Position numbers and translations under genes: made by a program. From the IMG/VR virus record IMGVR_UViG_2695420817_000020: a stretch of 27,945 nt of DNA. One strand, written 5' to 3'. Numbering within the stretch: position 1 is the stretch's first letter; every line of letters starts with the position of its first letter. Under the pieces are notes generated by a model. The model did not search any database, was not told the origin of the DNA, and saw only the letters and a list, made by a program, of their open reading frames with translations. The DNA comes from a virus. Lineage: Duplodnaviria; Heunggongvirae; Uroviricota; Caudoviricetes. This document shows, in pieces, positions 1,529-2,015 of this stretch.

Positions 1529-1559
1529 ATGATTTTCGCCGAAGATAGCGACATGATTC

Positions 1560-1597
1560 TTGCATTTTTCAAAAAATCTGGTTAGGATTTTCCTAAC
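1560..1597 (+). promoter_or_regulatory. Candidate late promoter (PR'-like) with an overlapping palindrome GTTAGGAtttTCCTAAC
   Basis: TTGCAT (1560-1565), 17-nt spacer, TAGGAT (1583-1588). Perfect 7-bp inverted repeat at 1581-1597. Location just 3' of Q matches lambdoid PR'/qut placement. Confidence 0.3.
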
Positions 1598-1638
1598 GAT
1601 GGGCTTTGTATGTCTGCCGTTAACGAAATCATAACAAA

Positions 1639-1659
1639 CCTCGCTTCGGCGGGGTTTTT
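1639..1659 (+). terminator. Rho-independent terminator (tR'-like), implying a short leader transcript
   Basis: Stem CCTCGC / GCGGGG (one G-U pair) with TTCG loop, followed by TTTTT. Confidence 0.55.
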
Positions 1660-1678
1660 GCTTTTCTGGAGGTCAATA

Positions 1679-1936
1679 ATGCAGGGCGAAAAGCAGCAGC
1701 CATATTTTTTTAACCCTGGTATGACTGTTGAACAGCTTGAAGACTGGCTGGAGCAGCAAAAGCTTCATCTAAGCCGCTATAACCGTCTGGTAAAAGAAAA
1801 AGCAGAGCTTGAAGAACGGCTCAGTGATATTTCTGTGGAAATTGAACGAATGTCTGCTGGTGGTTTTAACGGAAAGTTGAGTTTCCCCTGGGAGTCAAGT
1901 TCGCTTCTGAGAAATCATCAACAGGGTAGTGTTTGA
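1679..1936 (+). CDS. Hypothetical 85-aa coiled-coil protein in the Q-to-holin cargo slot
   Basis: GGAGG 6 nt upstream of ATG 1679. The tracked ORF start at 1610 would span the terminator hairpin, so the internal start is preferred. No recognisable domain. Confidence 0.45.
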   Translation: MQGEKQQPYFFNPGMTVEQLEDWLEQQKLHLSRYNRLVKEKAELEERLSDISVEIERMSAGGFNGKLSFPWESSSLLRNHQQGSV

Positions 1937-2015
1937 CTGAAATAATAAACAGACTGTCATTAAGATCCCTTCCCCTCATATCTGAGAGGACCAACAGCAA
2001 TTAAGAGGGGGCTAA

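Follow-up and report, generated by a model that had tools for sequence, protein, structure and literature searches.

A probable lambda-type late-gene cassette and its 85-amino-acid first gene in the Q-to-holin interval of a lambdoid Escherichia coli prophage

What turns on the late genes in a 27,945-nucleotide (nt) stretch of Caudoviricetes DNA (IMG/VR virus record IMGVR_UViG_2695420817_000020; the whole stretch is referred to below as the window), and what is the small open reading frame (ORF) of 85 amino acids (aa) that stands first among them? The question concerns positions 1529-2015, the interval between the gene for the antiterminator Q and the ATG of a holin gene at 2016. An earlier note, made from the sequence alone, had read this interval as the PR'/qut/tR' arrangement of lambdoid phages, with a palindrome at the promoter and an ORF in the slot where Shiga toxin (Stx) phages carry their toxin genes. 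We read this interval as the regulatory cassette for the late genes of a lambdoid Escherichia coli prophage whose late operon includes a tail-sheath-sized gene. Very probably the cassette is of the Q-lambda type, with promoter PR', a sigma-dependent pause element (SDPE) and terminator tR', and drives the 85-aa gene together with the genes for lysis and morphogenesis. Homology with lambda is the ground on which we propose the start site, the pause, the loading of Q and the read-through, and the role of the 85-aa protein is one that we infer.

A cassette of this kind is defined by the Q gene, PR', the Q binding element (QBE), the SDPE, tR' and the late genes (PMC9388147). In lambda, sigma70 re-binds the -10-like AACGAT at +1 to +6, with GGG as a discriminator-like enhancer, and the two sequences bring about the +16 pause on which Q depends (PMC4005639). 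In the window, AACGATGGG at 1595-1603 follows the candidate -10 hexamer after a gap of 6 nt and is an exact match to the lambda PR' element and its spacing, the lambda sequence being TAAATT-TGACTC-AACGATGGG. Pause elements of this type were found twice in the window against 0.31 expected, the second one at 4824 on the minus strand. As the 9-mer AACGATGGG is placed exactly at the lambda spacing from the -10 hexamer, the ensemble of elements is far beyond chance, and by analogy transcription would start at A1595. The lambda QBE lies between -35 and -10. The gap from the Q stop (1528) to the -35 hexamer is 31 nt.

Upstream, the Q protein aligns with lambda Q from end to end at 35% identity (E 8e-42), with a gap at residues 121-168, and matches PDB entry 7UBM at E 1.6e-37. 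Residues 121-168 form a 48-aa insertion relative to lambda Q, which carries extra CxxCxGxG (DnaJ-like) zinc-finger motifs. The zinc-ribbon 'arm' of lambda Q spans residues 114-152 (PMC9388147), and the insertion falls within the region equivalent to it. In lambda this arm touches QBE positions 11-13 and sigma region 4. The same Pfam DnaJ-like match was seen in Q proteins of 256-278 aa at other loci.

Promoters of the same type were collected by a pattern scan of IMG/VR, in which the -10/+1 region was left free and which returned at least 120 contigs. Among 120 contigs the -10 hexamer was TAAGAT in 49, TAAAAT in 42, TAGGAT in 28 and TAGAAT in 1, with no other variant. These contigs hold 40 distinct leaders, nearly all of which have a G+C hairpin and a T-run at about +42 to +65, the hairpin sequences being different. 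The PR'/qut/tR' reading is thus borne out by a Q-lambda homologue upstream, by the lambda pause element at lambda spacing and by a conserved leader length and terminator position.

Comparison by megablast places a mosaic junction between the pause region and the terminator. From the 3' end of Q through the promoter to window position 1621 (+27), identity with SfV, mEp460 and many Stx2c phages is 92-95%; the homology with Salmonella phage ST64B starts at 1636, at the terminator, and takes in the ORF. A junction there is expected if Q cannot be parted from its DNA site, whereas tR' and the late genes can be swapped. In the Qin prophage of E. coli K-12 MG1655, ydfT/quuQ is followed by the same type of promoter (TTGCAT-17-TAAAAT-6-AACGATGGGC), leader and terminator, at 1858-1945 on the minus strand of locus L207 (about 1,642,444-1,642,357, minus strand, in MG1655), where nothing is annotated. 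The interval 1529-2015 itself is 100% identical in several avian E. coli chromosomes. Among 5426 complete E. coli genomes, 101 have at least 80% of it, and the share of complete E. coli genomes with this exact interval is put at about 2-3%. Its nearest phage records are SKA5 and 118970_sal3.

The proposed course of events is as follows. RNA polymerase with sigma70 would start at about A1595 from the modest promoter TTGCAT-17-TAGGAT, after which sigma region 2 would re-bind AACGAT and GGG (+1 to +9) and the polymerase would pause near +16. Without Q, it would end at the UUCG-loop terminator and release a leader of about 66-71 nt. On induction, Q would bind the spacer DNA and the paused complex, ride with the polymerase, and suppress tR' and later terminators, so that transcription would then extend through the 85-aa gene and the lysis cassette into more than 20 kb of head and tail genes on the plus strand. 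Up to about 25.3 kb, the plus strand holds the large downstream genes, leaving aside those nested in longer ORFs. The features on which this course is based are collected in Table 1. The -35/-10 candidate, the palindrome, the tetraloop terminator, the GGAGG and the 85-aa ORF that the earlier note had listed are all there, with small refinements of their coordinates.

Table 1. Features in and around the Q-to-holin interval (window coordinates).
Feature	Position	Strand	Basis
Q antiterminator gene, 250 aa, Q-lambda family	776-1528	+	Pfam PF03589 at 1e-53
-35 hexamer TTGCAT (PR' equivalent)	1560-1565	+	sequence; placed as lambda TTGACT relative to the pause element
Spacer, 17 nt, candidate Q binding element	1566-1582	+	11/17 positions as in the lambda PR' spacer
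Perfect palindrome 7+3+7, GTTAGGA-TTT-TCCTAAC	1581-1597	.	DNA hairpin -4.9 kcal/mol
-10 hexamer TAGGAT	1583-1588	+	sequence; TAAAAT/TAAGAT/TAGGAT among 120 same-type promoters
Putative sigma70-dependent pause element, AACGAT (-10-like) and GGG (discriminator-like triplet)	1595-1603	+	identical to lambda PR' +1 to +9
Predicted leader RNA, about 66-71 nt, ending at tR' without Q	1595-1665	+	fold; consensus fold of 16 variants
Intrinsic terminator (tR' equivalent), 9-bp stem, UUCG loop, U-run	1636-1665	+	terminator scan; fold; covariation
Shine-Dalgarno GGAGG of the ORF	1668-1672	+	sequence; 6 nt upstream of the ATG
First late gene, 85-aa protein, PHROG 3501, predicted single long helix (residues 17-60)	1679-1936	+	
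Decayed 3' remnant of an ECs1072-family gene	1866-2000	-	residues 83-143 of a 144-aa protein, E 2e-13
Lysis cassette: two holin-family genes, GH19 endolysin, Rz (Rz1 embedded)	2016-3742	+	Pfam PF16931, PF05449, PF00182, PF03245

The terminator is built from the stem halves AAACCTCGC (1636-1644) and GCGGGGTTT (1649-1657) with a TTCG loop, and its T-run TTTTTGCTTTT is at 1655-1665. Across 10 module contexts 98.6% of the stem cells are paired, better than in all slid controls. The covariation consists of 2 compensatory pairs (CG to GC) and 4 pairs with one-sided compatible changes. In loci of the ORF family, the hairpin together with ...GGGGTTTTTGCTTTTCTGGAGG... stands directly 5' of the ORF ATG wherever the promoter adjoins. 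The terminator evidently belongs to the ORF module, and the ORF appears always to travel with it.

The predicted leader RNA folds into a 5' hairpin (1595-1621), an A-rich single-stranded linker and the terminator, with a minimum free energy of -19.5 kcal/mol and a z-score of -2.05. Its first 27 nt pair as AACG.UGGG ... CCGUU. In 16 variants, 4 pairs of this hairpin vary on the 3' side only and are paired in 14, the 5' side being the invariant pause element. The lambda sequence AACGA...UCGUU is able to pair in a similar way. An Rfam scan of the whole window, leader included, matched no family, and a tRNA scan of the window found nothing.

Such an RNA could have a function of its own. StxS, a small RNA (sRNA), derives from the PR'-tR' transcript of Stx phages (PMC7547250), and with this precedent the leader could be a stable regulatory sRNA of the Hfq type, constitutive in lysogens. 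The predicted architecture (5' hairpin, A-rich linker, terminator with U-tail) is typical of such molecules, an RNA of the same type is encoded in K-12 Qin, and in 14 of the 16 variants pairing is kept in the 4 pairs of the 5' hairpin whose 3' side varies, although the 5' side of that hairpin is under constraint in any case, being the pause element. The linker and terminator sequences diverge widely between the leader variants, so that a conserved seed is missing; the fold z-score is only -2.05, and the Rfam comparison was negative. A literature search for a Qin leader sRNA found nothing relevant. We regard a regulatory role of the leader as rather unlikely, and take the leader as part of the late-gene cassette, where it would be the product of termination at tR'.

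The first gene behind tR' differs between prophages. At least 8 different first-gene sets stand behind this promoter type, and the first genes include csp genes, a 75-aa ORF with a methylase, the 85-aa ORF and a Zn-finger ORF. In the Stx2c phage LC727876.1 (L205 14707-19407), a 250-aa Q with the same N-terminus as in the window (14707-15459) is followed by the same promoter type at 15491, and then by a lipoprotein ORF, a DNA methylase, stx2cA (18167) and stx2cB (19138). The region between tR' and the lysis genes is, as far as these comparisons go, a variable cargo slot at the Stx position. The earlier description as an Stx-type cargo slot is apt, because the first genes differ so widely between prophages, and because a phage with the same Q N-terminus and promoter type has stx2cA/B 2.7 kb downstream of the promoter and other phages have other cargo there. 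In one further locus (L061 1674-2882) a 402-aa STAND/AAA nucleoside triphosphatase (Pfam nSTAND1) is found between Q and the terminator-ORF module, and may be defence-type cargo in the same slot.

The ORF listing begins at an upstream ATG at 1610 and gives a protein of 108 aa. The family supports the shorter form: homologues are mostly of about 85 aa, M1 is nearly invariant in the alignment, and the Prokaryotic Genome Annotation Pipeline calls the identical coding sequence (WP_001569330.1). A Shine-Dalgarno sequence of the form GG.G/GGAG is kept in all contexts compared. The homology search that had been suggested for the product led to the PHROG 3501 family (E 1.2e-54; residues 1-84 cover positions 1-84 of the 85-position profile) and to no characterised relatives. 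The homologues form 59 clusters (90% identity) in Salmonella, Citrobacter, Enterobacter, Klebsiella, Kluyvera and E. coli. For codons 8-60 the ratio of nonsynonymous to synonymous substitution rates (dN/dS) is 0.08-0.23 at a dS of 0.8-1.5, and therefore the ORF is taken to be translated and selected. It is, by this measure, a real and selected gene that is uncharacterised.

The AlphaFold2 model of the protein has a conserved QQPYFFNPGM segment, a long helix at residues 17-60 with a predicted local distance difference test score above 90, and a poorly defined tail. A soluble helical protein without a transmembrane segment is predicted. An exhaustive profile search gave only 31 representative clusters of 45-126 aa, none of them fused to a known domain, and a profile search of genome contigs with the ORF family alignment gave no confirmed loci. 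Literature searches on sb50 (the ST64B homologue), on PHROG 3501 or the RefSeq identifier, and on ECs1072 found nothing relevant.

Between the end of the T-run (1665) and the ATG at 1679 there are 13 nt. Because this leaves no space for a promoter, expression of the ORF must depend on read-through from PR', and the protein would be made by read-through only. No terminator was found between the ORF and the holin gene by the terminator scan. A classical moron, that is an autonomous insert with its own promoter and terminator, was considered and rejected on account of the 13-nt upstream gap and the missing terminator 3' of the ORF. A promoter-like site at 1918-1946 is attributed to chance, with 1 found and 1.4 expected, and is disrupted by a 66-nt segment in ST64B. 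The ORF family as a whole stands behind at least 5 unrelated promoter/leader sequences, and in some Klebsiella-type loci behind a tRNA gene. In those loci (L069, L071, L074, L077-L079, L081-L083) the tRNA gene replaces the terminator about 50-130 nt upstream of the ORF; its anticodon loop, CUUGUAA, is Thr-UGU-like by eye, and the arrangement resembles that in Stx phages, where tRNA genes lie between PR' and stx.

What the ORF once stood next to can be read from its relatives. Of 31 loci with other Q/promoter types, 29 have an intact ORF and a full-length convergent partner gene on the minus strand, which encodes 144-163 aa and overlaps the last 70-80 nt of the ORF (for example L002 2731-3165 and L055 3176-3622, both minus strand). 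The partner family is PHROG 5286 / NCBIfam NF033230 ('ECs1072 family'), and the partner protein gave a confident all-alpha model with no fold match. In the window the partner is reduced to a remnant, as it is throughout the window's lineage, and the alignment of this remnant to partner residues 83-143 has an internal gap of 22 aa, a deletion. The 44-aa remnant did not match the 142-position profile NF033230. It is a pseudogene fragment and not a member of the ECs1072 family, and its presence explains the spacer at 1937-2015. In a Klebsiella-type locus (L065 3344-4267, minus strand) an insertion-sequence-transposase-like ORF (MAKQKFKITNWPTYNKALINRG...) replaces the partner downstream of the ORF.

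Where ORF and partner overlap, the ORF has a collapsed dS and a dN/dS close to 1, which fits dual coding under constraint on both frames. Frameshifted ORF copies were found in 4 of 51 partner-less loci vs 0 of 31 paired loci, an excess that is suggestive, with numbers too small to carry weight. The frameshifted copies are L051-L054, at about locus position 3000, where the N-terminal region is out of frame; they are confined to the partner-less lineage. Taken together, the ORF is the surviving half of a decayed convergent two-gene cassette. To the earlier note it has to be added that this real, selected gene is not an autonomous insert, being half of a decayed convergent pair that is tied to its terminator.

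From the pairing we infer that the ORF protein acts with or against the ECs1072-family partner. One specific form would be a late antagonist or regulator of the partner: late transcription would also be antisense to the partner gene and turn it off at induction, and the window would have kept the late half only. The 29 of 31 loci that hold both genes with 3' ends overlapping by 70-80 nt, and the constraint on both frames in the overlap, argue for this. Broken ORF copies occur only in the partner-less lineage, but 4 of 51 against 0 of 31 is too small a difference to carry weight, and 47 intact partner-less copies persist. Neither protein matches a defence family, a toxin family or a known fold. 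This specific role is unlikely on balance. The same low standing is given to the bolder proposal of a two-gene prophage switch of a new kind, in which the partner would be on in the lysogen and Q-dependent late transcription would silence it by antisense collision and at the same time make a helical antagonist; the window would then hold an orphaned antagonist and, separately, its leader would be the counterpart of StxS in prophages of the Qin/SfV type.

A component for lysis timing, antiholin-like or a regulator of the adjacent holin cassette, is another role that the position of the gene brings to mind, as the ORF lies directly upstream of the holin gene with a gap of 79 nt and would be transcribed together with the lysis genes. 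The family, however, precedes at least 4 different lysis cassettes, which argues against a dedicated lysis role. Its usual separation from the lysis genes is the minus-strand partner gene plus 500-1200 nt, the protein is predicted to be a soluble helix with no transmembrane segment, and frameshifted copies exist. We consider a function in lysis timing very unlikely. The ORF protein is probably an accessory late protein and not a part of the lysis machinery. Within Rz (3281-3742) of the lysis cassette, an embedded +1-frame ORF at 3504-3689 (plus strand) has a lipoprotein-like signal (…LLGVSAC…) as in a typical Rz1 o-spanin.

The earlier note had included the palindrome at 1581-1597 in the late-promoter architecture. 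The palindrome is present, but it is not a conserved component of such promoters: its 7-bp stems are perfect in 27 of the 120 related promoters, all of the TAGGAT subtype, and the other 93 have 1-5 stem mismatches. It could be an operator for a dimeric regulator gating the late promoter, being a perfect 7-bp inverted repeat centred on the -10/+1 region whose stem is kept within its own lineage while the loop varies (TTT, TTC, TTA). Promoters of the same type are nevertheless found without it, among them that of L042, where an N-terminally identical Q occurs with the same terminator and ORF. The window has no second copy of the palindrome, and perfect 7-bp hairpin palindromes are common in it (25 overlapping matches, about 18 separate sites, vs 9.7 +/- 3.3 in shuffles). 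We judge an operator to be highly improbable. An RNA element is ruled against, since the palindrome lies upstream of the transcript. Probably the palindrome is a lineage-specific coincidence of -10 and start-site sequences, incidental rather than a working part. Read on the minus strand, it is followed by TTTTTT (T-run 1571-1576) and scores as a weak terminator-like site, the stem being weak and not conserved, and the tR' hairpin also has a partial minus-strand T-run (TTTGTTATGATTT). Both sites could stop leftward transcripts of the convergent partner gene where it is present.

Several observations weigh against the reading as a Q-lambda-type cassette with a functional first gene. The promoter hexamers are weak (3/6 and 4/6, 7/12 in all) and were missed by a generic consensus promoter scan, and the spacer agrees with that of lambda at only 11 of 17 positions. 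The DNA contacts of the Q arm may differ from those in lambda, because the arm carries the 48-aa insertion. In the IMG/VR scan the pattern prescribed the -35 hexamer, the initial 12 nt of the spacer and 9 nt within the pause region (ACGATGGGC), so the constancy of these among the 120 contigs is not evidence, being fixed by construction. The 85-aa protein has no match in Pfam, NCBIfam or PADLOC, its profile matches in PDB are generic coiled coils only, and a Foldseek search with the AlphaFold2 model gave a best E of 7 and no fold match. The 4 frameshifted copies among 51 in the partner-less lineage mean that the ORF may be dispensable or decaying. Weak hexamers that fail the scan would also suit the view that the hairpin merely terminates the early/Q transcript and that the late genes are read from upstream promoters with no dedicated late promoter, but this is extremely improbable given the exact lambda pause element at lambda spacing, the same promoter-to-terminator distance in nearly all 40 leader variants, and the finding that Q-family proteins act only at such cassettes (PMC9388147).

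With the lambda-type cassette as the preferred reading, the late switch of a widespread Q type is defined at the sequence level, from the promoter and the pause element known from lambda through a leader of about 66-71 nt to the terminator. The same promoter type is found in K-12 Qin, in SfV-like prophages and in Stx2c phages, and thus also upstream of stx2c, so that the Q-dependent expression of toxin and cargo becomes directly testable for this Q type. PHROG 3501 and ECs1072/PHROG 5286 are flagged as small uncharacterised families that form a conserved convergent pair in a slot of high expression, and over-long annotations such as sb50 are corrected. The architecture is textbook; the window instance is an uncharacterised member of it, and the ORF and its lost partner belong to small uncharacterised families.

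Compared with lambda Q/PR'/QBE/pause/tR', the window has a Q of the same family, an identical arrangement of -10 hexamer, 6-nt gap and AACGATGGG, a spacer of 17 nt, and likewise an intrinsic terminator before the first late gene with the lysis genes next. It differs in its weaker hexamers, in the 48-aa insertion with extra zinc-finger motifs in the arm of Q, and in a leader of about 66-71 nt, whereas the lambda PR' leader is the 6S RNA of 194 nt. In the place where the window has its selected 85-aa gene, between tR' and S, lambda has just the doubtful orf-64. SfV, mEp460, Stx2c phages and K-12 Qin share the promoter module, with the terminator at the same distance as in the window, but their -10 hexamer is TAAAAT or TAAGAT, they have no palindrome, and their terminator sequences are other ones. 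Their cargo is also different: Qin has cspF/cspB, and the Stx2c phages have genes for a lipoprotein and a DNA methylase as well as stx2c.

Salmonella phage ST64B has a terminator and an ORF, sb50, that are homologous to those of the window (80% nucleotide and 75% amino-acid identity), and sb50 is also the first gene after the late terminator. ST64B differs in having an unrelated Q (sb49, no Pfam Q model), another promoter, and a full minus-strand ECs1072-family gene that has been kept. The annotation of sb50 (L002 2442-2801; P0017) gives 119 aa from an ATG inside the leader, while the family alignment supports the start of the 85-aa form; the sb50 segment NLAFAGFLRFW is the translated terminator hairpin. 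With the StxS system (PMC7547250) the window shares the expectation of a short RNA that ends at tR' and comes from a constitutive late promoter in lysogens. The StxS precursor of 258 nt is processed to 74 nt, whereas the primary transcript of the window is predicted to be already of about 66-71 nt.

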